From: Escherichia phage ECML-183-2
Sequence record: OL631481.1
Direction: 5' to 3' (one strand)
Length of the DNA stretch: 64,000 nt
Within the stretch, counting starts at the first letter, position 1, and every line of letters starts with the position of its first letter. Position numbers and translations under genes: made by a program. This document shows positions 1-17,124 of the stretch, in pieces. A model generated the notes under the pieces. The model was not told the DNA's origin and did no database searches. It saw only the letters and a list, made by a program, of their open reading frames with translations.

Positions 1-1
1 A

Positions 2-1533: not shown

Positions 1534-1687
1534 AAAAGAGTATGTTCGCATTCCACGAGAATTAACAGATCACATTGCAGAAGCAATAGCTTTCGAAGCT
1601 AGATGTTGTGGAGGCATTGCTTACGATATTTATGAAGCAATTATTAAAGCTGCTCAAGAAGAGGAGGAGATGAAAAATGGGTATTGA
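1523..1687 (+). CDS. hypothetical small protein (54 aa)
   Basis: Not in ORF track; GGAGG RBS 6 nt upstream of ATG; fills gap before next gene. Confidence 0.3.
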   Translation: MESEKEYVRIPRELTDHIAEAIAFEARCCGGIAYDIYEAIIKAAQEEEEMKNGY

Positions 1688-2003: not shown

Positions 2004-2012
2004 GGAGAGAAA

Positions 2013-2579
2013 ATGAAAGTAGAAAAAACAAAAATTGAAGGTGCGGTAATTATCAAACCAGACGTTTATAAAGATGACCGTGGTTTCTTTTTAGAAACAT
2101 ATAATGAACAAAAATACGAAGATATCATTGGTAGACAAACTTTCGTTCAAGATAACATGTCTAAATCAAACTTCGGTGTTTTGCGAGGAATGCACTTTCA
2201 AACAAATAATCCGCAAGGTAAGCTTGTTCGTTGTGTAAGTGGTGAAGTATTGGATTTCGCTGTAGACTTACGTAAAGATAGTCCTACTTACGGTGCTTGG
2301 GACGGTGTTGTTCTTCGTGCACGACACCATACGCAGTTTTGGCTTCCACCTGGTTTGGCACATGGTTTTATAGTTTTGAGTATGGATGCTATCTTTGAAT
2401 ACAAATGCACAACTCCATACGACCCTTCTAGTGAAGAAAGTTTACGTTGGGATGATCCTGATATAGGGATCGATTGGGGCTTCGATATGATTTTTGATGA
2501 AGGTTTTAAACCTATCCTATCAACAAAAGATGCAATGGCTAAATCTTTTCAACAGTTACGTAGCGAGGGTGTATGCTAA
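2013..2579 (+). CDS. rmlC: dTDP-4-dehydrorhamnose 3,5-epimerase
   Basis: 188 aa; RmlC cupin signatures (DDRGFF.E, VLRGMHFQ, KLVRCV.GEV.DFAVDLRKDSPTYG, PPGLAHGF). Confidence 0.9.
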   Translation: MKVEKTKIEGAVIIKPDVYKDDRGFFLETYNEQKYEDIIGRQTFVQDNMSKSNFGVLRGMHFQTNNPQGKLVRCVSGEVLDFAVDLRKDSPTYGAWDGVVLRARHHTQFWLPPGLAHGFIVLSMDAIFEYKCTTPYDPSSEESLRWDDPDIGIDWGFDMIFDEGFKPILSTKDAMAKSFQQLRSEGVC

Positions 2580-3415
2580 CATATCTGGTATTGGGTGGTA
2601 ATGGACAACTGGGACAAGCTTTACGTAAAGTTGCCCCTGCAAATGTATCTTTAATTTATCCTAAAGAACGTGTAGATATTACAAATTTTGAAGCTGTGCG
2701 AAACGCTATTGTTGAAGATTATGTAGATGGTGTTATTAATTGCGCCGCTTATACGGCTGTAGATAAAGCCGAACAAGATTTTGCTACTGCTTTGGCTGTT
2801 AATGCTTATGGCCCTGCAAATATTGCGGCAGTGTGCAGCAAACTTAAAATTGATTTTGTGCATATTTCCACAGACTATATTTTTAATTATTCTCATCCTA
2901 TTTTTGAAGACACTGCACCTAACCCAATAAACAATTATGGGTATACGAAAGAACTTGGTGAAAAAATGGTGCGAGGAGTTAACCCAAATGCATATATTAT
3001 TCGAACAGCCTCGGTATATAGCGAATTTGGAAATAACTTTCTAAAAACCATGTTGTCTCGCTATAATGATGGACAACGTGATTTTATTATTGTTGCTGAT
3101 CAGTTCTCTTGTCCAACATATGCTCCAGATTTAGCAGAAGCTATTTTTGAAGTATTAAAAACAGGTTGGTCAAGGTCTGTTAAGACTTACCATTTTGCAG
3201 GAAGCCATCTTATTTCTTGGGCGGAGTTTGCGGAAAAGATCTTGACACAGATGCCAGAACCTGTTAAGATATCGGCGGTATCAGCTTCAACCTATAATGC
3301 TCCAGCAGCACGTCCGGTGAAGTCACAACTAATAACCAGTCACTATCTTACAAAATCAGATTTAAATAAAGGTATTGAACAGTCTTTAGCAGTATTACTT
3401 AATAAGGAGAGGTAA
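2573..3415 (+). CDS. rmlD: dTDP-4-dehydrorhamnose reductase
   Basis: 280 aa; N-terminal Rossmann GGNGQLG, STDYIF, catalytic YGYTK; overlaps rmlC stop. Confidence 0.9.
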   Translation: MLTYLVLGGNGQLGQALRKVAPANVSLIYPKERVDITNFEAVRNAIVEDYVDGVINCAAYTAVDKAEQDFATALAVNAYGPANIAAVCSKLKIDFVHISTDYIFNYSHPIFEDTAPNPINNYGYTKELGEKMVRGVNPNAYIIRTASVYSEFGNNFLKTMLSRYNDGQRDFIIVADQFSCPTYAPDLAEAIFEVLKTGWSRSVKTYHFAGSHLISWAEFAEKILTQMPEPVKISAVSASTYNAPAARPVKSQLITSHYLTKSDLNKGIEQSLAVLLNKER

Positions 3416-3675
3416 TGGAATTTGTAATTTTTGGTAAACCTAACTGTCAATTTTGCGAAATGTCAAAACAACTATTAACCATGCGCAATAAACAGTTTGA
3501 ATATTTAAGTCTTGATCAAGACTATGATTTAGAATCAATGACTAAAACAGTTGTTGATCTTACCGGAGTTCCTCCACGCACATTTCCACAAATTCTGTCT
3601 GAAGTGAACGGGGAGGTAACATACGTAGGCGGTTTTACCGAACTGCGTGATCTCATGGCTCAAATTGCGGAGTAA
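3415..3675 (+). CDS. nrdC: glutaredoxin/thioredoxin (T4 NrdC-like)
   Basis: 86 aa; CQFC active site, C-terminal GGFTELRDL resembles T4 NrdC GGFDQLREY. Confidence 0.75.
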   Translation: MEFVIFGKPNCQFCEMSKQLLTMRNKQFEYLSLDQDYDLESMTKTVVDLTGVPPRTFPQILSEVNGEVTYVGGFTELRDLMAQIAE

Positions 3676-3680
3676 CAATT

Positions 3681-3830
3681 ATGAAAAGTAAACAGAAACG
3701 TAAGATCTTTTCTCGTGCTTTGGCAAATGAGCTGAAGTCCAACATAAAGAAAACGAAACCAAAACGTGAAACTTCTCCAGAACATCTGTTGTTTAATGAG
3801 TTGGATCACGGAGTAGGAGACGACGAATAG
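3681..3830 (+). CDS. small basic protein (49 aa)
   Basis: Not in ORF track; Lys/Arg-rich; coordinates hand-derived. Confidence 0.3.
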   Translation: MKSKQKRKIFSRALANELKSNIKKTKPKRETSPEHLLFNELDHGVGDDE

Positions 3831-3837
3831 GAAGTAA

Positions 3838-4338
3838 ATGGCTAAAGTAGTAGATGAGTTTGATATGCTACGAGTCGATGAAGGACTGAAGCTTACTGTT
3901 TATCAAGATCATCTTGGTTATTGGACAGTTGGCATAGGACACCTTCTGACTAAAATAAAAGATAAAGCAAAGGCTATTCAAATCTTAGATAATCTCCTTG
4001 GTCGTAAGACCAATGGAGTTATCACAGAAAAAGAAGCCCGTCAAATCTTTGCTGACGATGTTGCAAAAGTGAAGAGAGACATAAAAAACAGTGCTATCTT
4101 ATCACCAATCTATGATAAGGTGAGTGATACTCGTAAATTGGGAATAATCAACATGGTTTTCCAGTTGGGGTTAAAAGGTGCTGAAGGGTTTAAAAATAGC
4201 TTGACTTTAATCAGCAATGCATATTATACTCAAGCAGGTAAAAACATGCGTAAAAGCCGATGGTATAGCCAGACGCCAAACCGTGCTGAACGAGTAATTA
4301 AAGTTCTGACTTCTGGAACTTTAGATGCTTACAACTAA
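3838..4338 (+). CDS. e: T4-type lysozyme (endolysin, gene e homolog)
   Basis: 166 aa; colinear with T4 lysozyme (MLRVDEGLKLTVYQDHLGYWTVGIGHLLTK, KSRWYSQTPNRAERVI, GTLDAY); catalytic E/D/T conserved. Confidence 0.9.
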   Translation: MAKVVDEFDMLRVDEGLKLTVYQDHLGYWTVGIGHLLTKIKDKAKAIQILDNLLGRKTNGVITEKEARQIFADDVAKVKRDIKNSAILSPIYDKVSDTRKLGIINMVFQLGLKGAEGFKNSLTLISNAYYTQAGKNMRKSRWYSQTPNRAERVIKVLTSGTLDAYN

Positions 4339-4342
4339 TAAA

Positions 4343-4356
4343 GGGGCTTCGGCCCC
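4343..4356 (+). terminator. GC stem-loop GGGGC-TTCG-GCCCC between e and phoH (weak terminator or stabilising hairpin)
   Basis: Perfect 5-bp stem with TTCG loop; only short T tract after. Confidence 0.4.
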
Positions 4357-4375
4357 TTCTAAAAGGAGTGCTACT

Positions 4376-5134
4376 ATGGGAAATAAAACCGCAGCTAAAA
4401 CACAACGGCAGAAACTGGCTAATTCAGCAAAGATTGAAAGCCGTTATGCAGCAAAAGCGGTAGGTAATGACGATTACCGTTTAGATGAATTTATGCCTGA
4501 AGGGGACCAAAATAAGATTGTTCAAAGCATGATTTGGAATGATCTGACTGTTGTAAATGCTCCGGCAGGGACTGGTAAAACCTCTGTTGCTTTATGGAAA
4601 GCTTTGCAGATGCTTCGTTCAGGAGACTTCCGTAAACTACTTTTTATCAAGAACCCTACTGAAGTCGGAGATGACCAGATTGGTTTCTTGTCTGGGGATA
4701 AAACAGATAAACTAGCAGCACACTATGAATCTACAAAACGTATTTTCCAGCAATTCATGACAGCCAACAAATTGGAAAACGATATTGGATCAGGTAAGAT
4801 CGAATTGAATATTCCTAACTATTTGTTGGGGGCTACCCTGGATAATACAATCGTCATTATTGACGAAGCACAACTTATGTCAACAGAAACACTTAAACTT
4901 CTTATTGAACGTGCAGGTATTAATACGCATGTTATTGTATTAGGCGATGTTCGCCAGACATATGCAATTAAAAAACGTAGCAATGGTCTGCATCAAATTT
5001 TGGAACTTTTATATCCAGAAAATGAAGAAGGTGTTCGTGAGCCAATTGTAGATTTTATTGGATACGTTGAACTGACAACGGACGATAATAAACGTGGACG
5101 TTTGTCTAAACTGATTACTGAAGTGTTTATTTAA
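4376..5134 (+). CDS. phoH: PhoH-like ATPase
   Basis: Start moved to internal ATG with AAGGAG RBS; Walker A APAGTGKTS, Walker B VIIDEAQ. Confidence 0.85.
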   Translation: MGNKTAAKTQRQKLANSAKIESRYAAKAVGNDDYRLDEFMPEGDQNKIVQSMIWNDLTVVNAPAGTGKTSVALWKALQMLRSGDFRKLLFIKNPTEVGDDQIGFLSGDKTDKLAAHYESTKRIFQQFMTANKLENDIGSGKIELNIPNYLLGATLDNTIVIIDEAQLMSTETLKLLIERAGINTHVIVLGDVRQTYAIKKRSNGLHQILELLYPENEEGVREPIVDFIGYVELTTDDNKRGRLSKLITEVFI

Positions 5135-5169
5135 TAATGTGGCAGGGAAGCCATTTATAAGGAGGATTG

Positions 5170-5670
5170 ATGGGTGTAGCAACAATAGCTATCGGAAGAA
5201 GCGGTATAGATGAGTGCTATCAAACGGGACTCGTAAAACCTAACGAATTTCGTCAAATTTGTGTAAACCATATTGAAAAAGAGATTGCTCTTACTTTAGA
5301 GAATATGACCCTCCGAGATAAACTGGAAATGTTTAAATGTTGGTGTCTAGGAGAAGATTGGCTTTTAAACCATTTTCAAGAACTTTCTGATAGTAAAGAA
5401 AGCTTGTTTGATTGTATAATAGGAATAGCTGGCTCCGATCCTAGCCTTCTGCACATAACAGAAGAAGAGGCGAAGTTACTGTTCTTAAGTAATTTGTTTA
5501 ATAAGAAAGCACTGCTTGTTCGTGATTGCAGTGATCTTCTTAATAACCCGCTCGCAACGTCTGATCAAATTTTTGTTGACAAAGAGACACTACGTGCGAT
5601 AGAATACATCTGCAAATATGTGAATGGCGGGAAAGCGGTTCTTAAAACATTAACAGAGGAGGAAGAATAG
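5170..5670 (+). CDS. hypothetical protein (166 aa)
   Basis: ORF track (start at ATG after TTG); AAGGAGG RBS. Confidence 0.5.
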   Translation: MGVATIAIGRSGIDECYQTGLVKPNEFRQICVNHIEKEIALTLENMTLRDKLEMFKCWCLGEDWLLNHFQELSDSKESLFDCIIGIAGSDPSLLHITEEEAKLLFLSNLFNKKALLVRDCSDLLNNPLATSDQIFVDKETLRAIEYICKYVNGGKAVLKTLTEEEE

Positions 5671-6362
5671 TGACGACAATTATTGCAACCAAAAATAAGA
5701 TTTTGAGTGACGGTAAGGTAACTTTTGGTGGACGTGTAGATTCTATTAATTTCAAAAAGGTCCGAAAAATTGGAGATTACCTTGTAGGTGGTGCTGGTCG
5801 TCTGACCTCCGTGCTTTCTTTCTTTCAATGGTTTGAACAAAATCTACAGTGCGAAGCAGCACGTGATGCTGTCCCTGGTTTGATGATTCACTCTGATCCA
5901 GATAAAGAAGATGAAGAGTTTATTGCACTTGTTGTTCATCCAGACGGACGTATTTTCCTGCACGAAGGTAACAACCCAACACGTGCATATCCGATTGATG
6001 AAGAATATTATGCAGTAGGAAGTGGGTCAGACTTTGCTTTAGCTGCTCTTGATGCAGGGGCAACACCAGAACAGGCTATGGAAGTAGCTAAAAAGCGAGA
6101 TGCTTTTTCTGGTGGTGAAACATTTATTGAAGAACAAGACGAGATTATTGAATTAACAGATGATGATTTAGAAAACTTCTCCAAAGAAGAATTGATCAAT
6201 CTTTTGAAATTCGGTAATCCCTACGGTGAAGAAGAACCTCGTAACGTGGCAGGTAACGAGGCGGATACTGAAGAAAAATCTGTTGCAGAAAACAACTTGA
6301 CTTCTAAATCTGAAAATATTAATCTCGTAAATGTGGCGGATTTCGAAGGAACCGCTATTTAA
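5670..6362 (+). CDS. HslV/proteasome-beta-like Ntn peptidase with acidic C-terminal extension
   Basis: GTG start then TTI (N-terminal Thr after fMet), GGAGRLTS and GSGSDFALAA motifs resembling HslV. Confidence 0.55.
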   Translation: MTTIIATKNKILSDGKVTFGGRVDSINFKKVRKIGDYLVGGAGRLTSVLSFFQWFEQNLQCEAARDAVPGLMIHSDPDKEDEEFIALVVHPDGRIFLHEGNNPTRAYPIDEEYYAVGSGSDFALAALDAGATPEQAMEVAKKRDAFSGGETFIEEQDEIIELTDDDLENFSKEELINLLKFGNPYGEEEPRNVAGNEADTEEKSVAENNLTSKSENINLVNVADFEGTAI

Positions 6363-6367
6363 CAAAC

Positions 6368-6389
6368 TGCCCCTTCGGGGGCATTTCTT
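6368..6389 (+). terminator. rho-independent terminator
   Basis: TGCCCC-TTCG-GGGGCA hairpin followed by TTTCTT. Confidence 0.55.
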
Positions 6390-6407
6390 AAACATAGGAG
6401 ATTAATA

Positions 6408-6842
6408 ATGTTACAAGTTCCTGCTAAGTTTGTTGAAGGCGCTATCCACTCTTACCGTCAAACATGTAAGAGGGCAAGAAACTGTTTAGATGGTCTGGTG
6501 GCAAAAACCTATACTGTTGAAAAGAAGAAACGTTGGTTTGGCAAAGATGTTTACGAAGTTAATATTTTTGGTGAACATAAACTAAACCACGATACTCCTG
6601 AAAACATGTTAGAAATATTTCTAAGAGATGACAAAATATCTCCTATGGATTACCAACTTTTAAAATTTTATGATTCTTCTTTGGCTATTGATAAGTTTGT
6701 TGAAGATATTCTGTCTAGAAAAACAGATAAAAACACTTATCCTCTAGAGGCTGATCAAATAGGATTATTAAACGAGATTTCATCCTTTAAAGAGTTGGAT
6801 AATATTACAAAAGAGGAGATTTTAGATGGCATTAGATTATGA
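6408..6842 (+). CDS. hypothetical protein (144 aa)
   Basis: ORF track; RBS AGGAG. Confidence 0.5.
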   Translation: MLQVPAKFVEGAIHSYRQTCKRARNCLDGLVAKTYTVEKKKRWFGKDVYEVNIFGEHKLNHDTPENMLEIFLRDDKISPMDYQLLKFYDSSLAIDKFVEDILSRKTDKNTYPLEADQIGLLNEISSFKELDNITKEEILDGIRL

Positions 6843-7335
6843 TCGCCCAACGAGCGATTATTATCCGACACCGCAAAAAGCAATCAATAGTTTGTTTAGT
6901 GTTATAGATTTCAAAAATCTAAAGGAAGAAGGTTGGGTTTTTGCAGAACCTTGCAGAGGTGAAGCTGAAGCGATTTATCGCCATTTTCCTGAAGGTTCAG
7001 AATATTGCGAACTTGAAGAAGGTAAAGATTATTTTAGTCACGAATGGGAAAATCGTCCCGACATTATAATCACAAATCCTCCATTTAAGTTAGCAATGGA
7101 GTTCTTGGAAAAGAGCTTAAAAGAGGCGGATGTTTGTATTTATCTTCTTCGGTTGGGCTTCTTGGAGTCAAAGAAACGACGAGAGTTCCATCAAAAGAAT
7201 CCACCAACAAACCTTATAGTCCTTTCAGAACGGCCTTCGTTTGTTGCAGGTGGAACAGATAAGACAGCATACGCTTGGTATGTATACGACCCAAAGAATC
7301 GTTTGGGCCTCTCTCAACCATTTTATTTTGTTTAA
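6826..7335 (+). CDS. putative DNA N6-adenine methyltransferase (NPPF motif)
   Basis: 169 aa; DYYPTP and IIITNPPF catalytic-motif-like segments; family not verified. Confidence 0.45.
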   Translation: MALDYDRPTSDYYPTPQKAINSLFSVIDFKNLKEEGWVFAEPCRGEAEAIYRHFPEGSEYCELEEGKDYFSHEWENRPDIIITNPPFKLAMEFLEKSLKEADVCIYLLRLGFLESKKRREFHQKNPPTNLIVLSERPSFVAGGTDKTAYAWYVYDPKNRLGLSQPFYFV

Positions 7336-7347
7336 GGAGTGTGAACT

Positions 7348-7584
7348 ATGGGTAAACTAATTATGACAGTGGCTATTGATTTTGATGAAGTAGATGAAAG
7401 CCTCAACCTTTCACTTTCTACTGACGTAGATGGCGAAATGGATAATATTGAAGCAGCTACTGCTCTTTTCTTCAAAAAAGCCATTGAAGTTTATGCCGAA
7501 CATGCTGCAAATCAGGCAGTAGATTACGGTGGTATCGTGCGAGCTTTAGTTCACTCTACCGAGGGCAATGACTGGGAAGATTAA
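7348..7584 (+). CDS. hypothetical protein (78 aa)
   Basis: ORF track; RBS AAGGAG. Confidence 0.45.
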   Translation: MGKLIMTVAIDFDEVDESLNLSLSTDVDGEMDNIEAATALFFKKAIEVYAEHAANQAVDYGGIVRALVHSTEGNDWED

Positions 7585-7787
7585 TGGCTTACAATTATTA
7601 CTGCATTTATGCACATGAGAAGAAAAAAGGTGACACTGGGACTAACGTTTATGCGGAGTCCGAATCTCATGCAAAAGAGATTGGTGCTATCCTTTTATCA
7701 CGCTGGACTGGAAATAATTACAGTGCAGAAGATATGTTTGCAGAAGTGGATTCTAGTATCCAAGAAGGCAACATAACAACTACGTGA
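7584..7787 (+). CDS. hypothetical protein (67 aa)
   Basis: ORF track; ATG overlaps upstream stop. Confidence 0.4.
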   Translation: MAYNYYCIYAHEKKKGDTGTNVYAESESHAKEIGAILLSRWTGNNYSAEDMFAEVDSSIQEGNITTT

Positions 7788-7795
7788 TATACTTA

Positions 7796-7821
7796 TACTC
7801 CCTTTTCGGAGGGAGTATTTT
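7796..7821 (+). terminator. rho-independent terminator
   Basis: TACTCCC-loop-GGGAGTA hairpin followed by TTTT. Confidence 0.55.
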
Positions 7822-7832
7822 AAGGAGGGATT

Positions 7833-8027
7833 ATGCAGAGCGGAGAAGAACTTTTAGAGAAACAATTCTCAACGCGTCAACAAGCTTTAAGTTATATGGT
7901 TTTTCTAAGCAATCTTGATGTGAATGAGATACTTTTACGGCGCGAAGGTAATTTCTGGAGCGTTAAATATCATGCAACAAGGTCTGTAATCTACCTGGAA
8001 GAGGCGGAATTCTCTTTGGTAGAATGA
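7833..8027 (+). CDS. hypothetical protein (64 aa)
   Basis: ORF track; RBS AAGGAGGG. Confidence 0.45.
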   Translation: MQSGEELLEKQFSTRQQALSYMVFLSNLDVNEILLRREGNFWSVKYHATRSVIYLEEAEFSLVE

Positions 8028-8041
8028 TCCGAGGAGTAGTT

Positions 8042-8614
8042 ATGCGTTCAACTTTCACTGGCAAAATAAATGCTGGTTTGATTTTTACAGCAGTAAGCAT
8101 TCTTAGCAAAAAGTTTAAAGTTGTTAACTTACCTGTGTGTGTCGATTTCGATCATGTTTTTGATCCTTCGAACCCCACTCGTTGCATAGTAAGGAGCAAT
8201 GTTGAAAACCCAACAGAAAATCTTTTTTATGTAACAAAACCATCTCAAAGCATACTTAACCAGGTTGAGGCGAAATTGATACCTAACGGTAAATATTACT
8301 CCTTTTTACCTTGTAAGTCGGTTGAAGTAGAGAATAGCAATACTTTCGCTAATAACTTGTCTGTATTCGTTTTCTTTGTTTCACAGGAAGACGAAACAGA
8401 TGAAATGGTAGCAACAGTGAGATCACTTTATGACTCTTTAGGGGTTGTTTATAGTCAACAAGTGTGCGAAAATAATAAAGCCTGTGTAGATTTCATTATC
8501 AACGGTATTTGTGTTTGTAGAGTAGAATCTTTTTGGCTGCACGATACATATGTGACTGTAGCAGAGGTTATATCTGAACCAAGATTTAGTCATGCGGTTT
8601 CGTTAATAATTTGA
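8042..8614 (+). CDS. hypothetical protein (190 aa)
   Basis: ORF track; start moved to ATG with GAGGAG RBS. Confidence 0.5.
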   Translation: MRSTFTGKINAGLIFTAVSILSKKFKVVNLPVCVDFDHVFDPSNPTRCIVRSNVENPTENLFYVTKPSQSILNQVEAKLIPNGKYYSFLPCKSVEVENSNTFANNLSVFVFFVSQEDETDEMVATVRSLYDSLGVVYSQQVCENNKACVDFIINGICVCRVESFWLHDTYVTVAEVISEPRFSHAVSLII

Positions 8615-8624
8615 GGAGGAAGGA

Positions 8625-8954
8625 ATGGAAATTACTACAGAACAAGCCCTTATCGACGAGGGTCGTAAAATCTTAGAAAAGTATTTAGGGGAGATTCATA
8701 AAACCCCTGGCTATTTGGGTTGGAGAATTGTTGAAGCTGTAGATTTCCTTCCTCGTAACAGTAAAAACGTCGAAATGCGATCTCTTTTCTTATTAGTAAA
8801 GGTGGATGGGGATACGCCTTTTAAAGATGCCGCAGAACATATTGAAAAAGTTGAAGAGAAAGCTTATGCAGAATTTGCCGATCTTGTTTTAGAACAAGAG
8901 ATTGAAGGAAAGGTGAATATTTTTATTTTCTTAGATTTTGAGGAGGATAAGTGA
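8625..8954 (+). CDS. hypothetical protein (109 aa)
   Basis: ORF track; RBS GGAGGAAGG. Confidence 0.5.
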   Translation: MEITTEQALIDEGRKILEKYLGEIHKTPGYLGWRIVEAVDFLPRNSKNVEMRSLFLLVKVDGDTPFKDAAEHIEKVEEKAYAEFADLVLEQEIEGKVNIFIFLDFEEDK

Positions 8955-9694
8955 TCATACACAGAGAAATTACTGTTAAAAGCGATCAAGATCTTTTTAT
9001 AATTGGAGATCTACACGGTTGTTATAATTTGTATGAAAAAGGAAAGGCAAAGTTAGGTATCCGAGATACAGATGTGGTTGTATCTCTAGGAGATCTTACT
9101 GACCGTGGAAAGCAAAACTTTCGTTGTGTTTTAGAATTTACTCGTAAACACAATCGCTACGCTATTCGTGGCAATCATGAAGACATGATGATTAAAGGTA
9201 TGCTGGAAGGAGATCGTAGCTACTACGAGTGTTGGTATCAAAATGGAGGATATACGGTCTTTGAAGAATGTGGTGAAGAAGGAGCTACAGCCTTAGCAAT
9301 GATGACAGAAGATTTACCTGTTGTTCTCATTGTTAACTACAGAGGCATGAAACTTGCGTTTATTCATGGTGGGTATCCATCTTCTTTGGAATATCTCCCT
9401 GTAACAGATATTCCAGAATACATTTCGAAGATGACAAAAACACAGGAAAACCGTTTTGCTGAAGCACTTATGTGGGACAGAGATATGGTAGACTGTGCTA
9501 AAGAGGGAATGAAACTTCCTGTTGTGATGGGTGTGGATTATGTGTTTCATGGACACTCTTATGTAAAAACACCTATTATCAATGCGAATCGTGTTTATAT
9601 GGATACTGGATCTGTGTTCAATAATAACTTAACATTTGCTTATTTCGATATGGACGGTGGTCTTCAATTTTATTCAACTCTTGAGGAGGATTAA
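8951..9694 (+). CDS. Ser/Thr protein phosphatase (lambda-PPase-like metallophosphoesterase)
   Basis: GDLHGC, GDLTDRG, GNHE metal-binding motifs; GTG start with GAGGAGG RBS. Confidence 0.8.
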   Translation: MIIHREITVKSDQDLFIIGDLHGCYNLYEKGKAKLGIRDTDVVVSLGDLTDRGKQNFRCVLEFTRKHNRYAIRGNHEDMMIKGMLEGDRSYYECWYQNGGYTVFEECGEEGATALAMMTEDLPVVLIVNYRGMKLAFIHGGYPSSLEYLPVTDIPEYISKMTKTQENRFAEALMWDRDMVDCAKEGMKLPVVMGVDYVFHGHSYVKTPIINANRVYMDTGSVFNNNLTFAYFDMDGGLQFYSTLEED

Positions 9695-10002
9695 TGTATA
9701 AGATTACAATTATTCAAAGTGTAGGTAATATCCGTAAAGAAGTTATCTTAGAAACAGAAGATGTTAATCTTGTTCGTGAGATTGTTTTTAAGGAAGATAA
9801 CCTGCAAACTGTAGAATCGGATGCACCGAATCTTATGGTGGATCAAGAATATTCTGAACTTCGTCGTATTTTTGAAGAGATTCAGAAGAAAGAAACACAA
9901 CCTACCATAAAACCTTTTGGTCCTTATGATCCGAGCAATCCTAGCAGTCCTTGGATCATGAGAAATACGGAACCCTATACACCTTTTGAAATTACTTGTT
10001 GA
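9694..10002 (+). CDS. hypothetical protein (102 aa)
   Basis: ORF track; RBS GAGGAGG. Confidence 0.5.
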   Translation: MYKITIIQSVGNIRKEVILETEDVNLVREIVFKEDNLQTVESDAPNLMVDQEYSELRRIFEEIQKKETQPTIKPFGPYDPSNPSSPWIMRNTEPYTPFEITC

Positions 10003-10009
10003 GGTGATT

Positions 10010-10591
10010 ATGGCAGAACTGTTCTATACGGGAGTTGGAAGTAGAGACATATCTGAAGAAGAGTGGGCTTTGATGGTAGGCATAGGGAAATGGCTTTCAA
10101 ACCTTGGGTTTAAATTAAGGTCTGGGAAGGCAGAGGGTAGTGATTCTGCTTTTGAAACAGGTGTCCAAGAGTCTGAAAATCCTACTAACAAGGAGATTTA
10201 TGTTCCTTGGGAAAATTTCAAAGGTAATCAGATTCCAGGTGATGTTATTGTTCTTGCAAAACCAGATACAATGAACTATGCTATCTCTGTGCAATGGATC
10301 AAAGATGTTCACCCAGCTTATGAAAAGCTTAAGCAGGGTGCTAGAAAATTGCACCAACGTAATGTGCATCAAGTGTTAGGCAGAGATTTGGAGAATCCTG
10401 CTCCATCATGTTTCTTGTTGGCTTGTGCTAATACTGATAAACATGGAGATGCAAAAGGTGGAACAGCTACGGCTTGGAAGATAGCTAAAGCCAATAATGT
10501 TCCTTGTTTAAACATTCGTGGGAAAACAAAACAAGAGATTTACGATTTTCTACGACCTTTGGTAATGAGGGCAATAACAAGTGATTCCTAG
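10010..10591 (+). CDS. DprA/Smf-like Rossmann-fold (SLOG-type) protein
   Basis: GVGSRD ... LRSGKAEGSDSAFETG resembles DprA core; start moved to ATG after GAGG. Confidence 0.4.
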   Translation: MAELFYTGVGSRDISEEEWALMVGIGKWLSNLGFKLRSGKAEGSDSAFETGVQESENPTNKEIYVPWENFKGNQIPGDVIVLAKPDTMNYAISVQWIKDVHPAYEKLKQGARKLHQRNVHQVLGRDLENPAPSCFLLACANTDKHGDAKGGTATAWKIAKANNVPCLNIRGKTKQEIYDFLRPLVMRAITSDS

Positions 10592-11093
10592 ACGTAAACG
10601 TGGTGAACAAAGAACAAACTTGGCAGAAATCTTAGATTACAACATGGTTAATGATGTGACAAAAGAAATTCTCCCTGTTGTAGAAGATATTCTTCGTAGA
10701 GGGTTACGATTCTGCTCTGATCGGGTGCATTTCATGTGGACACATAAAAGTGACTCCGCTTTGAATTTCTATCCTTTGGACTATACTCTGAACAATACGG
10801 AGATGAAAGATATCAACAAATACTTAATGGGATATAAAGATATAACAGAAACTGTTCTTGGAGAATTGGCAGAAATCTTGGCTAACGATATCCTTAGAAA
10901 TATTAATAAGGCTCTTGACAGAAGCCCAGCAGGAGTAGTAGTATCTTTTGCTGTGCCAGATATGGTTAAATATGAGTCTACAATACCTAATAAAGCTTAT
11001 GCCTTTCTTCGGAGAGACGTTCGTGGAAATGTGTTGGAGATGGAGTCAAACTACAAGATTGAGGAGGTTTTATGGCAGAGTTCGGATCAGTAA
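10581..11093 (+). CDS. hypothetical protein (170 aa)
   Basis: ORF track; GTG start. Confidence 0.45.
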   Translation: MIPRRKRGEQRTNLAEILDYNMVNDVTKEILPVVEDILRRGLRFCSDRVHFMWTHKSDSALNFYPLDYTLNNTEMKDINKYLMGYKDITETVLGELAEILANDILRNINKALDRSPAGVVVSFAVPDMVKYESTIPNKAYAFLRRDVRGNVLEMESNYKIEEVLWQSSDQ

Positions 11094-11362
11094 CAAGTTT
11101 TGAAAGTAACTTCGTTACCGCTTGGGAAGCTTGGGATGAAATGGGTGTTGGGGAACTTTATTTTTACAATGTAACACTACGTCCAGAGTATGCTTACCTG
11201 GTACCAGAAGGAACAGTTCAAATTGGCATGTATTTGTCTTCTCAAGACGGTGTTGTTCAATTTGAGTTTTATTCTAACACAACGGACAACGAATTTACAT
11301 ACCGCGCATTTCATGTCAACATGTCTTTAGGAGAGGAGAAATTTTATGACGACCAAGTTTAA
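11072..11362 (+). CDS. hypothetical protein (96 aa)
   Basis: ORF track; RBS GAGGAGG. Confidence 0.45.
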   Translation: MAEFGSVTSFESNFVTAWEAWDEMGVGELYFYNVTLRPEYAYLVPEGTVQIGMYLSSQDGVVQFEFYSNTTDNEFTYRAFHVNMSLGEEKFYDDQV

Positions 11363-11543
11363 AACAGTAGAAGAAGCCGTAAAAGCAGCTTATGAGGCTT
11401 TAGCGGAAGCAGAGCAGTTAGCAGATGAGACTGGTAAAGGTTTCCGTTTCTCCCCTGAATATGGGATGGGTGGTTATTATGATCCAGAAGACGAAAATGA
11501 GAACACTGGAACAAATTGGCATCCATCTTCTTTAAGTTGTTAA
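11346..11543 (+). CDS. small acidic protein with C-terminal W-H-P-S-S-L-S-C tail (paralog 1 of 3)
   Basis: 65 aa; helical N-terminus; ends NWHPSSLSC. Confidence 0.5.
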   Translation: MTTKFKTVEEAVKAAYEALAEAEQLADETGKGFRFSPEYGMGGYYDPEDENENTGTNWHPSSLSC

Positions 11544-11554
11544 TAGGAGGTAAA

Positions 11555-11824
11555 GTGGGAATCGAAGATATCAAAGGTTATAAACCGCATACCGATGACA
11601 AAATTGGTAAAGTGAATGCTATTAAAGATGCTGAAGTTCGATTAGGATTAATCTTTGATGCTCTAATGTCTGAATTGTGGGCTGAACTGGACGATTGTGA
11701 AGATTTGGAAGAGTCTACCAATATATCCACCCGCCTTGACCAAATTTCAATAGCAAAGACTAAGTTGAAAGAAGCTTCTATGTGGGCCTGTCGTTCCGTT
11801 TTCCAACCAGAGGAGAAATACTAA
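11555..11824 (+). CDS. hypothetical protein (about 89 aa, GTG start)
   Basis: Track ORF trimmed to GTG preceded by TAGGAGGT RBS. Confidence 0.4.
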   Translation: MGIEDIKGYKPHTDDKIGKVNAIKDAEVRLGLIFDALMSELWAELDDCEDLEESTNISTRLDQISIAKTKLKEASMWACRSVFQPEEKY

Positions 11825-12042
11825 TGAGTTATCGTAATGTTGAAGAATTAACTGAAAAAGCCCAAGCTATTATGGCTTTAGTGGACGAACTTACAAAAGA
11901 AGCTGAAGATGCTGGTTTTGGTCTTAGTTTGGAAGATGACGCAATCTGTTTTGAAGATTGGCAATCCTCTTCTTGTTATGGTGAAGGTGATGATGGTTTC
12001 GTCGTTAATTCTCAAGGCGTTTGGCACAGTAGTAGCTGTTAA
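11824..12042 (+). CDS. small acidic protein with C-terminal W-H-S-S-S-C tail (paralog 2 of 3)
   Basis: 72 aa; ATG overlaps upstream TAA; internal WQSSSC and terminal GVWHSSSC. Confidence 0.5.
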   Translation: MSYRNVEELTEKAQAIMALVDELTKEAEDAGFGLSLEDDAICFEDWQSSSCYGEGDDGFVVNSQGVWHSSSC

Positions 12043-12051
12043 GGAGAGATT

Positions 12052-12324
12052 GTGGAGTCTGAAGGCGAACTGCTGATAAAAAAGAAAGTTAAAGAGATGG
12101 AACAAGCACAAAGAAAGTTTCGTAAGGAAATTGAAGAACTTTGTGAACAGTTTCAGGAACAAGCTTGGATAGGTGACTACGGTAACGGAGAAACTTATTA
12201 CCCTACAGGAACACCAGCCGCAGATCACTATATTGATTTCATTTGTGAAGATTATGGTGTAGAGTTGGATGAAAATGGTTTAACCACAAGAGGTGTTTGG
12301 ATCTCTTCTTCCTCAATGTGTTAG
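12052..12324 (+). CDS. small acidic protein with C-terminal W-I-S-S-S-S-M-C tail (paralog 3 of 3)
   Basis: 90 aa; GTG start after AAGGAGAG; ends GVWISSSSMC. Confidence 0.5.
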   Translation: MESEGELLIKKKVKEMEQAQRKFRKEIEELCEQFQEQAWIGDYGNGETYYPTGTPAADHYIDFICEDYGVELDENGLTTRGVWISSSSMC

Positions 12325-12333
12325 TAAATAATA

Positions 12334-12355
12334 ACCCGCTTCGGCGGGTTTTTTA
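12334..12355 (+). terminator. rho-independent terminator
   Basis: ACCCGC-TTCG-GCGGGT hairpin followed by TTTTTT. Confidence 0.75.
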
Positions 12356-12384
12356 TTGACAGGAATCTGGAAGCTTGATAAACT
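12356..12384 (+). promoter_or_regulatory. sigma70-type promoter
   Basis: TTGACA - 17 bp - TAAACT directly after the terminator, 30 bp upstream of next gene. Confidence 0.5.
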
Positions 12385-12414
12385 TAACCTATCAACCAAT
12401 AGAGGAGAAATATT

Positions 12415-13356
12415 ATGGTGTTAATTGGTAGCCGTGCATTACAAATTCATGCTATGGACATGGGAAAAGACTTGTATCGCCCTTGTGTAGATTTAGATTA
12501 CCTGTGTACAGAACAAGAGTGGGAAGAATTATCAAAAATGTTCTCTCAAGATGAGTTTGTTGAACTTGTAGAACGTAAAGGGAACAAGGGCCATGTCAAA
12601 ATGATAGCTGGTGCACATTTGGAATACGATATTGCTTCTCAAGGAGATAGCACAGAAGCTTTGATTAGTTATTGTGAAGATTCTGATGATGTTCGTCGAA
12701 CTTACGCTGGACACGTTGTTGCTCCTTTAGATGTGCTCTACCTTCTTAAAATGAGTCATCGTTTTAAAAAGGATAGTCCTCACTTCTTTAAAACTATGAA
12801 AGATATTCATTTCATGCGATCACTAGGCGCAAAGATCCCAGAAAATCTTAAGAGTGTTTACGAGTTGCGTGAGAAAGAAACATACACTTACTCTCATCCA
12901 AACTTAAACGTGAGAAGTAAAGATTTCTTTAAAGGTGATGAGGTTCCGTATGTTTATGATCATGATTCTATCCATGAAGCAATCGCGGTAATGGATGCTC
13001 CGGCATATAAATCTTATATGAAAGATGGAAGTGAAGTTATGACCAGCAAAGAAAAGTTTTTTGCTCAACCAAAACATGTGCGCCTGTTAGGTGTTTATGA
13101 AGAAGCGTGTGTTTTGGCTTTGGAACGTTCACAAATTCCTTTCGGTGGAGAGATCGGAGGTCCAACCCCTAAGCAAAGTTTTATAATGGCTTTATCTAAA
13201 GTCTGCACATCCATCACTAGTGGTTGGTTTAGGGAATATGCTTGGGAAAACTTTTATGTTGTTATTAAGCTATATGAAAACATGGGCGAAAACGACTATG
13301 TTGAACGTTTTAAAGCTAATCAACATGTAGTAAAGCCTTTTGAAGGAGGTTATTAA
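12415..13356 (+). CDS. hypothetical protein (313 aa), possible nucleotidyltransferase-like N-terminus
   Basis: N-terminal GS ... DLD segment loosely resembles pol-beta-type NTase motif but spacing atypical. Confidence 0.5.
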   Translation: MVLIGSRALQIHAMDMGKDLYRPCVDLDYLCTEQEWEELSKMFSQDEFVELVERKGNKGHVKMIAGAHLEYDIASQGDSTEALISYCEDSDDVRRTYAGHVVAPLDVLYLLKMSHRFKKDSPHFFKTMKDIHFMRSLGAKIPENLKSVYELREKETYTYSHPNLNVRSKDFFKGDEVPYVYDHDSIHEAIAVMDAPAYKSYMKDGSEVMTSKEKFFAQPKHVRLLGVYEEACVLALERSQIPFGGEIGGPTPKQSFIMALSKVCTSITSGWFREYAWENFYVVIKLYENMGENDYVERFKANQHVVKPFEGGY

Positions 13357-13357
13357 T

Positions 13358-13753
13358 ATGTGTGGATATCTTTCAGAAAGTTATTTCAAAGTGACGCATG
13401 AGGATTTAGAAAAAGCACGATTGAAACTGACAGCTATTATTGAATACTCTAATACTGTTGATCACAGATTAAAGACTACTAAAGTATCTGTTCCTTGTTG
13501 GTTAGGTTTACGGCATAAAATAATGTCTCAACATGACCATGTTGTTCGAGAGATGCATGGTTGGTGTTGGTTTCACGATGTGGCTCTGCATTTTGGTTAT
13601 ATTACAGAAGAAGAGCATAGATTCTGTGAACTAACATATCGTATTCCAACCCTTCACGATTTAGATTTGTGGAAGAAAGCAAACGAGATTTTTCTTACAG
13701 AAAGTGATTGGCGTAAAGTTATGGCTTGTCTTGAATGGAGGGGTAATGAGTAA
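13358..13753 (+). CDS. hypothetical protein (131 aa)
   Basis: Track ORF trimmed to ATG with GGAGG RBS. Confidence 0.45.
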   Translation: MCGYLSESYFKVTHEDLEKARLKLTAIIEYSNTVDHRLKTTKVSVPCWLGLRHKIMSQHDHVVREMHGWCWFHDVALHFGYITEEEHRFCELTYRIPTLHDLDLWKKANEIFLTESDWRKVMACLEWRGNE

Positions 13754-14429
13754 AACAGTTTTGTCTATGTTTGACGGATCTGGGATCATGGTGTTACGTT
13801 ATGCCGAAGCAGGTCACAAGTGTTTTTGTGTAAACGCTGATGAAGGGGATCACGGTAAATACGAGGTTAGGATGGAGCACCCAAACATAACCTATGTGAA
13901 TGCCTGGATAGATTCTACATTCAACCCTGAAGATCATGGGATACCTAAACCCGATATTATTTTTGGATTTCCACCTTGCACTATGTTAGCAGGTAGTGGT
14001 AGCAAACACGAACGCAGCACAGAGGAATTGGATGAAGCTTTAGCTAATATTCGTGTAGTGGAAGCTTTGGGTAACAAATATAATGTTCCTTGGATGATTG
14101 AGAACCCAGTAGGTAAACTTTCAACCTTATGGCGTAAACCCGATTTTTACTTTGATCCTTATGAGTATGGTGGGTATTTGTTTGAAGAGGAAGGAAGCTT
14201 TCATCCTAAAATGCCTACCCGTGATGGGTATACAAAGAAAACTTGTATTTGGCACGGCAATGGTTTTGTTCAACCAGTGAAGAAACCAGTAGATCATATA
14301 GGCTGCTTCTGGGGTTGGAAAAGCTTAGGCGGAGCTAGTGCAAAAACAAAACAACTTAGATCCCTAACCGCACGTGGTTTTGCTCGTGCCGTGTTTTTGT
14401 CTAACAATCTTCTAGATAAGGAGAAATAA
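13746..14429 (+). CDS. cytosine-C5 DNA methyltransferase-like protein (atypically short)
   Basis: Motif I-like FDGSG, motif IV-like FPPCT, motif VI-like ENPVG; only ~227 aa, no obvious target-recognition domain. Confidence 0.5.
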   Translation: MSKTVLSMFDGSGIMVLRYAEAGHKCFCVNADEGDHGKYEVRMEHPNITYVNAWIDSTFNPEDHGIPKPDIIFGFPPCTMLAGSGSKHERSTEELDEALANIRVVEALGNKYNVPWMIENPVGKLSTLWRKPDFYFDPYEYGGYLFEEEGSFHPKMPTRDGYTKKTCIWHGNGFVQPVKKPVDHIGCFWGWKSLGGASAKTKQLRSLTARGFARAVFLSNNLLDKEK

Positions 14430-15046
14430 TGTCAAATTCAAAACCAGTAGTTGCTTATCAAGTAGATCGTAATGATGGTGAAGGTAGTGTTGTAGTTTTT
14501 GATACACATGGTCTTGCAGCAAGACGCAAAGGTGCTTGTCTACTGGACATTGGTGGTGAAGATGAATACTGCACTGTACGTAGAGTAAAAGAATTTGATC
14601 AATATGCTGAAAAAGGTTTTGTACCCGTGAAAGCACTATTAGAAGCTGGATGGTGGATACCTAGTGCACATGATTATGATATTTTGGAAGATACAGATGA
14701 ATTCAACAGTGAAGATTTTGTTTTTTCTCTGGATGAAAAATGCGTTTGGAAGGACTGGGATGAAATGGAACGCCATGCTTATTTTATAAACGAAGCATTA
14801 GATCGTAAAACTTGGTTTGAGAATACAGTTAAAGCAGCGTATCCTCAATTTACTTTTACACAGTTTTGGGGTGGCCCACATCATATTACTCATACAGCAT
14901 ATTTCGAGTTCCCAGGCTCACGTTATAAAGGTACTGTTTATTGGGATTGGGACGAGGACAAAGAACCTTCTGCTCAAGACTTCCGTTGCTATGTTTGTCA
15001 AGGTGATCAAGAAGCCCTTGACAAATACCTACAAAGTCTGGTATAG
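14429..15046 (+). CDS. hypothetical protein (205 aa)
   Basis: ORF track; RBS AAGGAG. Confidence 0.5.
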   Translation: MSNSKPVVAYQVDRNDGEGSVVVFDTHGLAARRKGACLLDIGGEDEYCTVRRVKEFDQYAEKGFVPVKALLEAGWWIPSAHDYDILEDTDEFNSEDFVFSLDEKCVWKDWDEMERHAYFINEALDRKTWFENTVKAAYPQFTFTQFWGGPHHITHTAYFEFPGSRYKGTVYWDWDEDKEPSAQDFRCYVCQGDQEALDKYLQSLV

Positions 15047-15104: not shown

Positions 15105-15584
15105 ATGTTTCAAGTAAATGTCAATGTGCATAATAGTTACTCTGATTGTGAAACGTGTGGCTATAATTCATCTAATGTTGTTCGTATTAGTGGCGATTTA
15201 GGAGAAGCTTCTTTTGGAGAAGAAGCAAGTTGCTTTAGTGGTATGGATGCAGAATGGAATGATATTGCACATTGGTTGGTGAGCAAACTAAAAGAAAAAG
15301 AGAAACCATTTCCTACTCTGCTTGATCGTTCTCTTGTGGAAGACGCAGGTAAAGCATATGCAGACTATGCGTATGCAGACGGTAAATATTTGGAAGATGA
15401 TAAGGCTAACCATTTGCTTTATGTTTACTATGAAGCTGAATCTGCCTACGATAATTATTACAGCATGTCTAACATCCTACGTCTGTTTGCAGAGTTTGAT
15501 ATTTATTTCGAAGTAGAATTTTCAGAAGATGATGTTTATGAATATGATTCTTATGATCCATTTGAGGAGGAAGAGGGTGAATGA
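15105..15584 (+). CDS. hypothetical acidic protein (159 aa)
   Basis: ORF track; RBS AGGAGGG; highly acidic C-terminus. Confidence 0.5.
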   Translation: MFQVNVNVHNSYSDCETCGYNSSNVVRISGDLGEASFGEEASCFSGMDAEWNDIAHWLVSKLKEKEKPFPTLLDRSLVEDAGKAYADYAYADGKYLEDDKANHLLYVYYEAESAYDNYYSMSNILRLFAEFDIYFEVEFSEDDVYEYDSYDPFEEEEGE

Positions 15585-16168
15585 TAGAACGAAAACCCTT
15601 ACCAGATAGAGACTACTTGTTATCAAGGTTTAGTGTGGAGAATGGTCGTCTTGTTTGGAAACCTAAACCTTCTACAACAAAAGAGAACAAAAGATGGAAT
15701 AGCAGATACGCAGGGAAGATTGCAGGGACTATTGATAAAGCTGGTTACTCTCATGTCAAAATAGACGGTATTGTATACTTGGAGCACAGAGTTTGTTTTA
15801 AAATGTACCATAATTACTGTCCAGATGTTATAGATCATGATGACGGCAATAAGCTTAATAATGCGGAAAGTAATTTATTGGATAGTAACTATTTATTAAA
15901 TAATAACAATAGACATGTGGATGGGTTAGAAGGTATTTATGAAAAGGATGGTGTTTTTCTTTGGGTTATAAACTACAACCAAGAAACTTTCTCTGTTTCA
16001 GGTTTCAAAACTAAAGAGGAAGCTACTGTAGCTAGAGCTTTAGCAAAACAAGAAATTTTGAAAGGATCTTATATCAAAAAAGAAAAGAAGCGTATAGATA
16101 ACACTTCAGGATTAAGTTGTGTGTTTGTGGCAACAAGAGAGAACATTCTTTTTCAAGTTTGTGTTTGA
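15581..16168 (+). CDS. HNH homing-endonuclease-like protein with AP2-type DNA-binding domain (possibly frameshifted)
   Basis: HNH_3-like YLEHRV...IDHDDGNKLNN; AP2-like VSGFKTKEEATVARALA; C-terminus appears to continue in +1 frame after T5 run at 16149-16153. Confidence 0.65.
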   Translation: MIERKPLPDRDYLLSRFSVENGRLVWKPKPSTTKENKRWNSRYAGKIAGTIDKAGYSHVKIDGIVYLEHRVCFKMYHNYCPDVIDHDDGNKLNNAESNLLDSNYLLNNNNRHVDGLEGIYEKDGVFLWVINYNQETFSVSGFKTKEEATVARALAKQEILKGSYIKKEKKRIDNTSGLSCVFVATRENILFQVCV

Positions 16169-16308
16169 CAAGACCACGTATTGCAAATATGGTTTCAACG
16201 ATCCAGAGAGATGTGCTATAGCTCTGGAGAAGCTAAGGTTGAAGGTGATGAAAGAAAAATATAAACCTGCAAATAAAAGCATTTGCGAAAAACATAAGGA
16301 GGAGATTT

Positions 16309-17124
16309 ATGCCGCGTAGAGTCATATTCATAACTGGCGCAGGACTATCTGTGGATAGCGGTATCCCAGCTTTTAGAACAGATACTTCTTCAGGGGAGGC
16401 GTTATGGTCTTCTTATAATCTTTCTGAAGTCTGTGACATTTTCAACTTCCGTGACGGTTATCAGCAAGAACAAGGTATTCTGGATGCTATGGGCGGTTTA
16501 GATGCGGAAGGATATAACCTCTACCGTAAAACTCACGACTTTTACAATAAACGTCGCGCGGAATTAGAGAAAGTTGACCCGAATCCGGCACATCTTCAGA
16601 TTGGGGAATGGTTCAAAAAACATGGTGCAGAAAAGATTATTAACATCACTACTAACGTTGATGACCTCCTTGAACGAGCAGGAGTAGATAGGGAAGAAGT
16701 GCTACATGTGCATGGTTTTCTTCCTGAAATTACTTTTCAAAGAAAAGCTGGACAACCTACAATTGTAAAAGATGTTGGTTATCAAGCCATAGATGTAGAT
16801 GACTACCATTATGTAAAACCTAATGTAATCTTCTTTGGGGAAGCTGCTCCACTTTACACAGATATGTATCATATTTTTGATACACTGACGGCTCAAGATA
16901 TGGTTATCGTTGTAGGCTGCTCTAACCAAGTAATCAACTTCAACTGGGAACTCTTCCCTGCCCTGAATATTGGGGTTAAGATGGTTGTAGTTAACCCAGG
17001 TTTGAATTTTGTAGAACAAACTCTCTACGAAGAACGTGGAGTGCTTGTCTACCGAGAGAAAGCAGGAACAGTCTTCAGTGATGAAGGCTTTATCAAAATG
17101 GTTGAAGACCATTTAAACAAATAA
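16309..17124 (+). CDS. Sir2-family (sirtuin-like) NAD+-dependent protein, no zinc-ribbon
   Basis: GAGLSVDSGIPAFR, TTNVDDLLERAG, HG, VIFFGE, VVGCS motifs; the CxxC..CxxC Zn module is absent. Confidence 0.8.
   Translation: MPRRVIFITGAGLSVDSGIPAFRTDTSSGEALWSSYNLSEVCDIFNFRDGYQQEQGILDAMGGLDAEGYNLYRKTHDFYNKRRAELEKVDPNPAHLQIGEWFKKHGAEKIINITTNVDDLLERAGVDREEVLHVHGFLPEITFQRKAGQPTIVKDVGYQAIDVDDYHYVKPNVIFFGEAAPLYTDMYHIFDTLTAQDMVIVVGCSNQVINFNWELFPALNIGVKMVVVNPGLNFVEQTLYEERGVLVYREKAGTVFSDEGFIKMVEDHLNK

Follow-up and report, generated by a model that had tools for sequence, protein, structure and literature searches.

Two solitary genes of Escherichia phage ECML-183-2 probably encode minimal DNA methyltransferases of the cytosine-C5 and gamma N6-adenine types

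The stretch of 64,000 nucleotides analysed here (hereafter the window) comes from Escherichia phage ECML-183-2 (sequence record OL631481.1) and carries two open reading frames (ORFs), ORF A (6826..7335) and ORF B (13746..14429), which a preliminary description made from the sequence had singled out as orphan DNA methyltransferase-like genes. We consider it quite probable that both encode solitary DNA methyltransferases dependent on S-adenosyl-L-methionine (AdoMet), ORF B a cytosine-C5 enzyme and ORF A a gamma-class N6-adenine enzyme, and that they serve in the site-specific masking of phage DNA. The coordinates of the two ORFs proved to be exact; both lie on the plus strand, as do all of their features given below, and each is preceded by a good ribosome-binding site.

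Many Phapecoctavirus genomes (subfamily Stephanstirmvirinae), phAPEC8 and ESCO13 among them, match the region 6400-14500 of the window from end to end at 99.0-99.4% identity. ORF A and ORF B coincide with coding sequences labelled 'DNA methylase' in the 99%-identical phAPEC8_ev052, and in several near-identical records the labels attached to both are 'DNA methylase', 'DNA methyltransferase', 'Dcm' and 'DNA N-6-adenine methyltransferase'.

ORF B encodes a predicted minimal Dcm-like cytosine-C5 methyltransferase of 227 amino acids. The ribosome-binding site GGAGGGG (13737..13743) lies upstream of the ATG at 13746, and this ATG rather than the GTG at 13704 is considered the true start because homologues begin with MSK(V/A)V. 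The profile search that had been suggested for this protein returned PHROG 757, a family labelled 'DNA methyltransferase', at E 1.8e-84 over residues 1-225 of 227. The conserved elements were examined in an alignment of 28 diverse homologues of ORF B (A1), and those of ORF A in an alignment of 28 diverse homologues of its own (A2). Motif I of ORF B, for AdoMet binding, is FDGSG (13770..13784, residues 9-13), in which D10, G11, S12 and G13 are invariant; motif IV is FPPCT (13968..13982, residues 75-79), with Cys78 as the predicted catalytic nucleophile; and motif VI is ENPVGK (14100..14117, residues 119-124). They are followed by YTKKTC (14229..14246, residues 162-167), a motif VIII-like segment standing in place of QxRxR, by a short insert at the position of the recognition domain between motifs VIII and IX (14256..14345, residues 171-200), and by a motif IX-like helix, TKQLRSLTARGFARAV (14346..14393, residues 201-216), soon after which the protein ends. 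Invariant or near-invariant in A1 are DGSG, F-P-x-C-T, E-N-P-V-G, Y-x-K-K-T-C and TKxLRSLTxRG; Cys78, Glu119 and Lys164 are invariant and Lys165 is near-invariant. The motifs I, IV (PPC) and VI (ENP) that had been read by eye in ORF B, like the DYYPTP and NPPF of ORF A, are therefore all present and conserved in the two alignments, and the assignment of the one protein to the C5 type and of the other to the amino-methyltransferase type (NPPF) holds.

The impression that ORF B is unusually short did not survive comparison with its family. More than 870 homologues were found in a large protein collection, essentially all of them 210-270 amino acids long, and 1,487 phage records contained a family member by tblastn, Drexlerviridae, Vequintavirus, Krischvirus and Dhillonvirus-type phages among them, so that the short length is the norm of the family. 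Identity to ORF B remains at 60-70% even where the phage or prophage is unrelated, as in Salmonella, Serratia, Pantoea, Erwinia, Citrobacter and Bdellovibrio.

A characterised relative of ORF B comes from phage K42, whose identity to the BASEL phage KarlJaspers (Bas06) is 95%. In K42 mutants that escaped a retron, a 711-bp 'Dcm-like' gene was disrupted in all cases, and expression of this K42 dcm gene was toxic solely in the presence of retron Ec86 (Retron-Eco1) (10.1101/2023.08.16.553469). Liquid chromatography-mass spectrometry showed that K42 dcm raises 5-methylcytosine (5mC) on the multicopy single-stranded DNA (msDNA) of the retron, and a C82A/E128A/K175A/K176A mutant of the enzyme neither produced this rise nor triggered retron Ec86 (10.1101/2023.08.16.553469); according to reference 12 of PMC12746101, the preprint has appeared as Cell Rep 2024;43:114857. 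The KarlJaspers genome (MZ501090) contains a gene of exactly 711 bp, bas06_0055, encoding a protein of 236 amino acids which matches PHROG 757 at E 6.2e-86 and to which ORF B is 50% identical over its full length (E 1e-71). In a 123-sequence alignment, residues C82, E128, K175 and K176 of the KarlJaspers/K42 protein correspond to C78, E119, K164 and K165 of ORF B. In addition to these identical residues, the two proteins share the PHROG family, the size class (227 vs 236 amino acids), a short conserved insert that replaces the recognition domain and a solitary position among small early genes, whereas the phages differ, KarlJaspers/K42 being a 51-kb Drexlerviridae siphovirus and the phage studied here a 150-kb myovirus. 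As judged from its sequence, ORF B belongs to a known family of minimal phage C5-methyltransferases whose function on DNA has been demonstrated. Formation of 5mC and retron triggering have been demonstrated for the K42 homologue, and we infer the activity of ORF B by analogy with it. The suggestion that ORF B might act on a different substrate is probably not correct, since a 50%-identical PHROG 757 homologue makes 5mC in DNA in vivo.

ORF B shares with the canonical PF00145 enzymes (M.HaeIII, M.HhaI, E. coli Dcm) motif I FxGxG, the Cys of motif IV, the Glu-Asn of motif VI, a motif IX-like helix and the overall fold. A phmmer search against PDB sequences aligned motifs I (FDGSG) and IV (PPC) of ORF B with those of M.HaeIII and placed Cys78 on the catalytic Cys71, so that the motif IV Cys, the misalignment of which would have spoken against a C5 enzyme, is aligned with a catalytic residue. 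The type II and DruM C5-methyltransferase models of PADLOC also matched the N-terminal half of ORF B, weakly. The authors of the K42 study superposed their enzyme on DNMT3 as well (10.1101/2023.08.16.553469). In our case the AlphaFold (AF2) model of ORF B, with a predicted local distance difference test score (pLDDT) of 84.9, had DNMT3B, DNMT3A and M.HaeIII as its top Foldseek matches (E 3e-7 to 4e-6, probability 1.0, template modelling (TM) score 0.43-0.54). The best structural matches are the catalytic domains of DNMT3A and DNMT3B (E 3e-7, TM about 0.5), which differ from ORF B in that sequence identity is only 14-19% and in having regulatory domains that are not found in ORF B. DNMT3 enzymes have a small recognition domain and short targets.

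ORF B differs from the canonical enzymes in the region of target recognition. ORF B is about 100 residues shorter, and the earlier view that it has no clear target-recognition domain was essentially right: about 30-35 residues separate the motif VIII-like strand from the motif IX-like helix. Ordinary C5 methylases vary in their recognition domain, whereas the region of about 30 residues found in its place in ORF B is conserved. The insert (residues 171-200) has a mean conservation of 0.78; the motifs lie at 0.75-0.88, and the surface helix formed by residues 91-112 at 0.46. The insert is thus as conserved as the catalytic motifs, which suggests that the whole ORF B family shares one target, possibly a CCWGG-like one.

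ORF A encodes a predicted minimal stand-alone amino-methyltransferase of 169 amino acids with the motif order X-I-IV. Its start overlaps the 3' end of ORF 6408-6842, and its ribosome-binding site, AAGAGGAG (6811..6818), lies 7 nt upstream of the start codon. It matches PHROG 799, another family labelled 'DNA methyltransferase', at E 2.8e-59 over residues 4-163, as do its homologues in rV5-like, K139-like, Streptococcus and Bacillus phages; given these profile matches to PHROG 757 and PHROG 799, the motifs quoted for the two proteins are not chance resemblances. The motif X-like segment of ORF A is DYYPTP (6856..6873, residues 11-16; T15 invariant, Y13 and P16 near-invariant), the motif I-like segment, a predicted AdoMet-binding loop, is EPCRG (6946..6960, residues 41-45), and the catalytic motif IV is TNPPF (7072..7086, residues 83-87; T83, N84, P85 and P86 invariant). 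Across A2 these elements take the forms (Y)Y-x-T-P, E-P-C-(R/K)-G and I-I-T-N-P-P-F, in the order of the gamma class. We take the pattern (Y/F)(Y/F)xTP, (D/E)PCxG and NPPF to resemble the X-I-IV pattern of DNA enzymes of the HsdM, Eco57I and TaqI types.

The family of ORF A is likewise very large. In an exhaustive profile search of clusters at 50% identity, 13,590 representatives passed E<=0.001 and 7,040 passed E<=1e-10, the latter being nearly all single-domain proteins of 160-220 amino acids; the homologues are almost all 160-230 amino acids long, and the best 150 are nearly all single-domain proteins of 130-260 amino acids, two fusion proteins (448 and 560 amino acids) being also present. 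The family is found in 543-618 phage records and ranges from Stephanstirmvirinae, Vequintavirinae and PVP-SE1-like phages to K139/Kappa-like temperate vibriophages, vibriophages of about 245-255 kb, large Listeria and Staphylococcus myoviruses (LMSP-25, Twillingate) as well as Streptococcus and Bacillus phages. ORF A lacks the CxxC...CxC zinc-ribbon insertion that follows RPSF in some homologues.

No significant match to ORF A was found in Pfam and NCBIfam, and PDB sequences gave sub-threshold matches only, around NPPF. Both ORFs look odd to a motif-based reading because they fall outside the coverage of Pfam and NCBIfam. Weak Pfam matches centred on NPPF were obtained for the 28 family members: EcoRI_methylase in 21/28, Dam in 9/28 and Eco57I in 6/28. 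The AlphaFold (AF2) model of ORF A has a pLDDT of 89.8 and comprises nothing outside the catalytic domain. Among the DNA enzymes its fold matches M.TaqI, MmeI, HsdM and CamA, and its fold matches in general are N6-adenine methyltransferases, save the uncharacterised lmo1582 and PH1948, so that the chemistry of ORF A is well supported. With the gamma-class N6-adenine DNA enzymes (M.TaqI, MmeI, M.BseCI, CamA, HsdM) it shares the X-I-IV order and NPPF; it differs from them in being a catalytic domain only, without a C-terminal recognition domain or a nearby specificity subunit, and in remaining below the thresholds of Pfam N6_Mtase, Eco57I and EcoRI_methylase.

Other small adenine methyltransferases were also compared with ORF A. 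Like the PF05869 phage Dam proteins (T1-like; KarlJaspers bas06_0042) and Hia5/Hin1523, ORF A is small, solitary and phage-borne and has a motif of the type (N/D)PP(Y/F). It does not match PF05869, for which its relatives gave E values of 0.001-0.06, below the cut-off; hhalign gave a probability of only 18% against the KarlJaspers Dam, the two proteins belong to different families (PHROG 111 vs 799), and ORF A is thus not demonstrably a divergent phage Dam of this kind. A non-specific adenine methylase of the Hia5/Hin1523 type was rejected because those proteins are Dam-like, of 281 amino acids, with DPPY and a divergent but recognisable recognition region. No link was established to the 141-amino acid PamA of Staphylococcus aureus prophages, the Staphylococcus phage listed for the ORF A family being the large lytic myovirus Twillingate and not a phi11-type prophage.

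Several observations weigh against the interpretation of the two genes as site-specific DNA methyltransferases. ORF B gave no PF00145 match at E<=0.1 in the Pfam scan and likewise none in NCBIfam (2/28 of its relatives match PF00145, best E 3.1e-6), the profile of its family found no match among PDB sequences, the canonical QxRxR is missing and no motif X can be recognised, and the family does not keep the Pro that precedes the catalytic Cys, the residue in front of Cys78 in A1 being P, D, S or Q. As to the target, CCWGG specificity was assumed in the K42 study by analogy with the host Dcm; its sole specificity test was mutation of CCTGG in the msDNA stem, which abolished retron defence, and a dcm+ host alone left little 5mC on msDNA (10.1101/2023.08.16.553469). 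From this last result it follows that the phage enzyme differs from the host Dcm in site, efficiency or form of substrate, and the true specificity of ORF B-type enzymes may be other than CCWGG. In the phAPEC8/phi92 clade of ORF A, the second Gly of GxG has given way to another residue and there is a one-residue insertion (GEAEA vs GxG-A), which is a caveat and no evidence of inactivity; the rRNA m6A methyltransferases PH1948, METTL5, ErmC' and KsgA match the fold of ORF A as well as the DNA enzymes do; and no characterised member of PHROG 799 was found in the literature. Finally, relatives carrying orthologues of both genes are reported in the BASEL study to be exceptionally sensitive to the restriction-modification (RM) systems tested there.

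Some of these departures could mean that one of the genes, or both, has decayed into a methyltransferase remnant without catalysis, given the replaced Gly in the AdoMet loop of the ORF A clade and, in ORF B, the missing motif VIII arginines and motif X together with a score below the PF00145 threshold. We regard such decay as most improbable: catalytic and cofactor residues are invariant in homologues that number hundreds to thousands and are uniform in length, which is unexpected for decaying genes, the K42 family member that shares the 'non-canonical' motifs of ORF B is active in vivo, and the models of ORF A and ORF B both fold confidently.

The results on msDNA bear on another explanation, in which the relevant substrate of ORF B would not be bulk double-stranded phage DNA at a Dcm site; the enzyme would prefer DNA that is single-stranded or in hairpins (replication intermediates, msDNA), or its specificity would be very relaxed, and it would have a regulatory or anti-defence role instead of protecting against restriction. 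Methylation of msDNA that is low from a dcm+ host and high from the K42 enzyme indicates that the phage enzyme does something that the host Dcm does not; the insert of about 30 residues is nearly invariant across phages of hosts as different as Escherichia, Vibrio and Arthrobacter, the closest folds are DNMT3 enzymes, and related phages are reported in the BASEL study to be unprotected from the RM systems tested. We nevertheless hold this explanation to be improbable, since the loss of defence upon mutation of CCTGG in the msDNA stem fits site-specific action on duplex DNA, and since the window shows avoidance of other 4-bp sites but none of CCWGG, which fits masking of CCWGG. The RM systems named in the available text of the BASEL study are EcoKI, EcoRI, EcoRV, EcoCFT_I, EcoCFT_II and EcoP1_I. 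Phages of the genus Vequintavirus have orthologues of both genes, the product of EmilHeitz bas49_0177 being 48% identical to ORF A. To our knowledge, none of the RM systems just named is CCWGG-specific, so that their efficacy says little about ORF B.

For ORF A, the explanation to be weighed against a DNA target is that of an RNA (rRNA or tRNA) N6-adenine methyltransferase or other amino-methyltransferase modifying the translation apparatus of the host or the phage. The phage carries tRNA-related genes, the fold of ORF A is close to those of single-domain METTL5/PH1948, Erm and KsgA, its size is about that of the single-domain RNA enzymes, without a DNA-recognition domain, and some members of its family match Pfam MTS (RsmC-type) weakly. 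The modelled fold by itself cannot separate DNA from rRNA as the substrate. An RNA substrate nevertheless appears unlikely, because the commonest weak Pfam matches of the family are EcoRI_methylase, Dam and Eco57I, and because in temperate relatives the homologue sits in the replication or early region, as in Vibrio phage Kappa, where kp12 lies directly upstream of rep; this region is the usual location of phage DNA methylases. The zinc-ribbon insertion of some homologues also suits nucleic-acid recognition. The motif X pattern, the weak matches to DNA-methylase families and the early or replication-region position in temperate relatives favour DNA, and the motif order and the predicted fold suggest that N6-adenine in DNA is the likely target of ORF A.

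A further view, which we think rather unlikely although deserving mention, is that both enzymes choose their targets in a non-canonical way, through DNMT3-like oligomerisation, DNA structure or very short motifs, ORF A perhaps acting on RNA or by a new mechanism. For ORF B, such targeting is hinted at by the methylation, by the K42 enzyme, of msDNA that the host Dcm leaves largely unmethylated.

The composition of the 64-kb window was examined for avoided sites. The observed/expected ratios of GATC (1.10) and CCWGG (1.09) are about as expected; GGCC (0.31), GTAC (0.38), CCGG (0.39) and CTAG (0.46) are depleted, and CTGCAG and GGATCC are absent where 9 and 13, respectively, would be expected. 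This is circumstantial evidence that methylation, by enzymes of either the host or the phage, masks GATC and CCWGG and that the other sites are avoided. The RM sensitivity of the relatives in the BASEL study implies that any protection is narrow and site-specific, and it counts against non-specific adenine methylation by enzymes of the ORF A type. The best-supported role of the two genes would accordingly be a narrow, site-specific masking of phage DNA. A search of the literature on Phapecoctavirus or Vequintavirus methylomes yielded nothing relevant.

Taken as DNA methyltransferases, the two proteins are encoded in the early or middle gene block of a Phapecoctavirus. Cys78 of ORF B would attack C6 of a flipped-out cytosine, Glu119 of the ENP motif would activate the cytosine ring, and Lys164 and Lys165 may substitute for the arginines of motif VIII, with the family-invariant insert of 30 residues presumably serving in lieu of a recognition domain. 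In ORF A, YYPTP and EPCRG would bind AdoMet and NPPF would catalyse the transfer in a protein devoid of a recognition domain, whose most probable target is a short motif in phage DNA. Replicating phage DNA would then likely be masked, site-specifically, from particular restriction enzymes, at the known cost that enzymes of the ORF B type are sensed by retron Ec86/Eco1.

The solitary status that had been proposed for both genes is borne out by their surroundings. The overlapping or abutting ORFs 6408-6842, 13340-13753 and 14429-15046 belong, like other neighbours, to PHROG families of unknown function, and PADLOC gave no match among the neighbours of ORF A and ORF B. A partner or specificity protein encoded by 6408-6842, 13340-13753 or 14429-15046 was rejected, as none of them stands beside the homologues in distant phages; this comparison covered KarlJaspers, Bas11 and rV5-like, K139-like, Streptococcus and Bacillus phages. 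The sole nuclease gene nearby is the free-standing HNH ORF 15581-16168, which was rejected as a restriction partner because it belongs to a homing-endonuclease family (phrog_99, E 4.7e-32) and lies inside an indel relative to phAPEC8_ev052. With no nuclease partner and no co-conserved neighbour, both genes are true orphans. The indel itself is a 1.24-kb segment, 15575-16812, missing in the otherwise collinear phAPEC8_ev052, and the HNH ORF is directly upstream of a SIR2-family gene (16309-17124). Two genes upstream of ORF B, 12415-13356 (plus strand) encodes a protein of 313 amino acids with matches to DUF7277 (E 8e-14) and DUF7275 (E 2.5e-75), which is not co-conserved with the ORF B homologues in KarlJaspers or Bas11.

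Other features of the region were recorded in passing. The ORF 8024-8614 (plus strand, 196 amino acids) matches phrog_4806, labelled 'histidyl tRNA synthetase' (E 3e-64), with no Pfam support; the label is probably misleading, as 196 amino acids is far below the length of a histidyl tRNA synthetase. Three consecutive small acidic ORFs on the plus strand, 11346-11543, 11824-12042 and 12052-12324, have a common C-terminal motif W-x-(P)-S-S-x-C, their C-termini being NWHPSSLSC, GVWHSSSC (with an internal DWQSSSC in addition) and GVWISSSSMC, respectively, and look like paralogues with a conserved C-terminal Cys. The window is collinear with phAPEC8_ev052 at 99% identity over 2004-14535, and collinearity is lost upstream of position 2004. 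The phAPEC8_ev052 counterpart of window positions 1-3415 contains rmlB-rmlA-rmlC-rmlD, for dTDP-rhamnose synthesis; the window itself has there an ORF of 362 amino acids (87-1175), by eye a putative ribonucleotide-reductase beta subunit, followed by four small ORFs, and of the rml genes only an rmlC-like (2013-2579) and an rmlD-like (2573-3415) one.

Neither gene is out of the ordinary: each belongs to a very large family of small stand-alone phage methyltransferases and is already annotated accordingly in near-identical published genomes, and the function of the ORF B family has been published. By analogy with K42, a phAPEC8-like phage with a Dcm-like gene would be predicted to be sensed by hosts carrying retron Ec86/Eco1, such as E. 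coli BL21, and retron sensing bears on host range and on the choice of strains in phage therapy. Since both minimal families are extremely abundant in phages, mapping of their targets would fill a gap in annotation, above all for PHROG 799.

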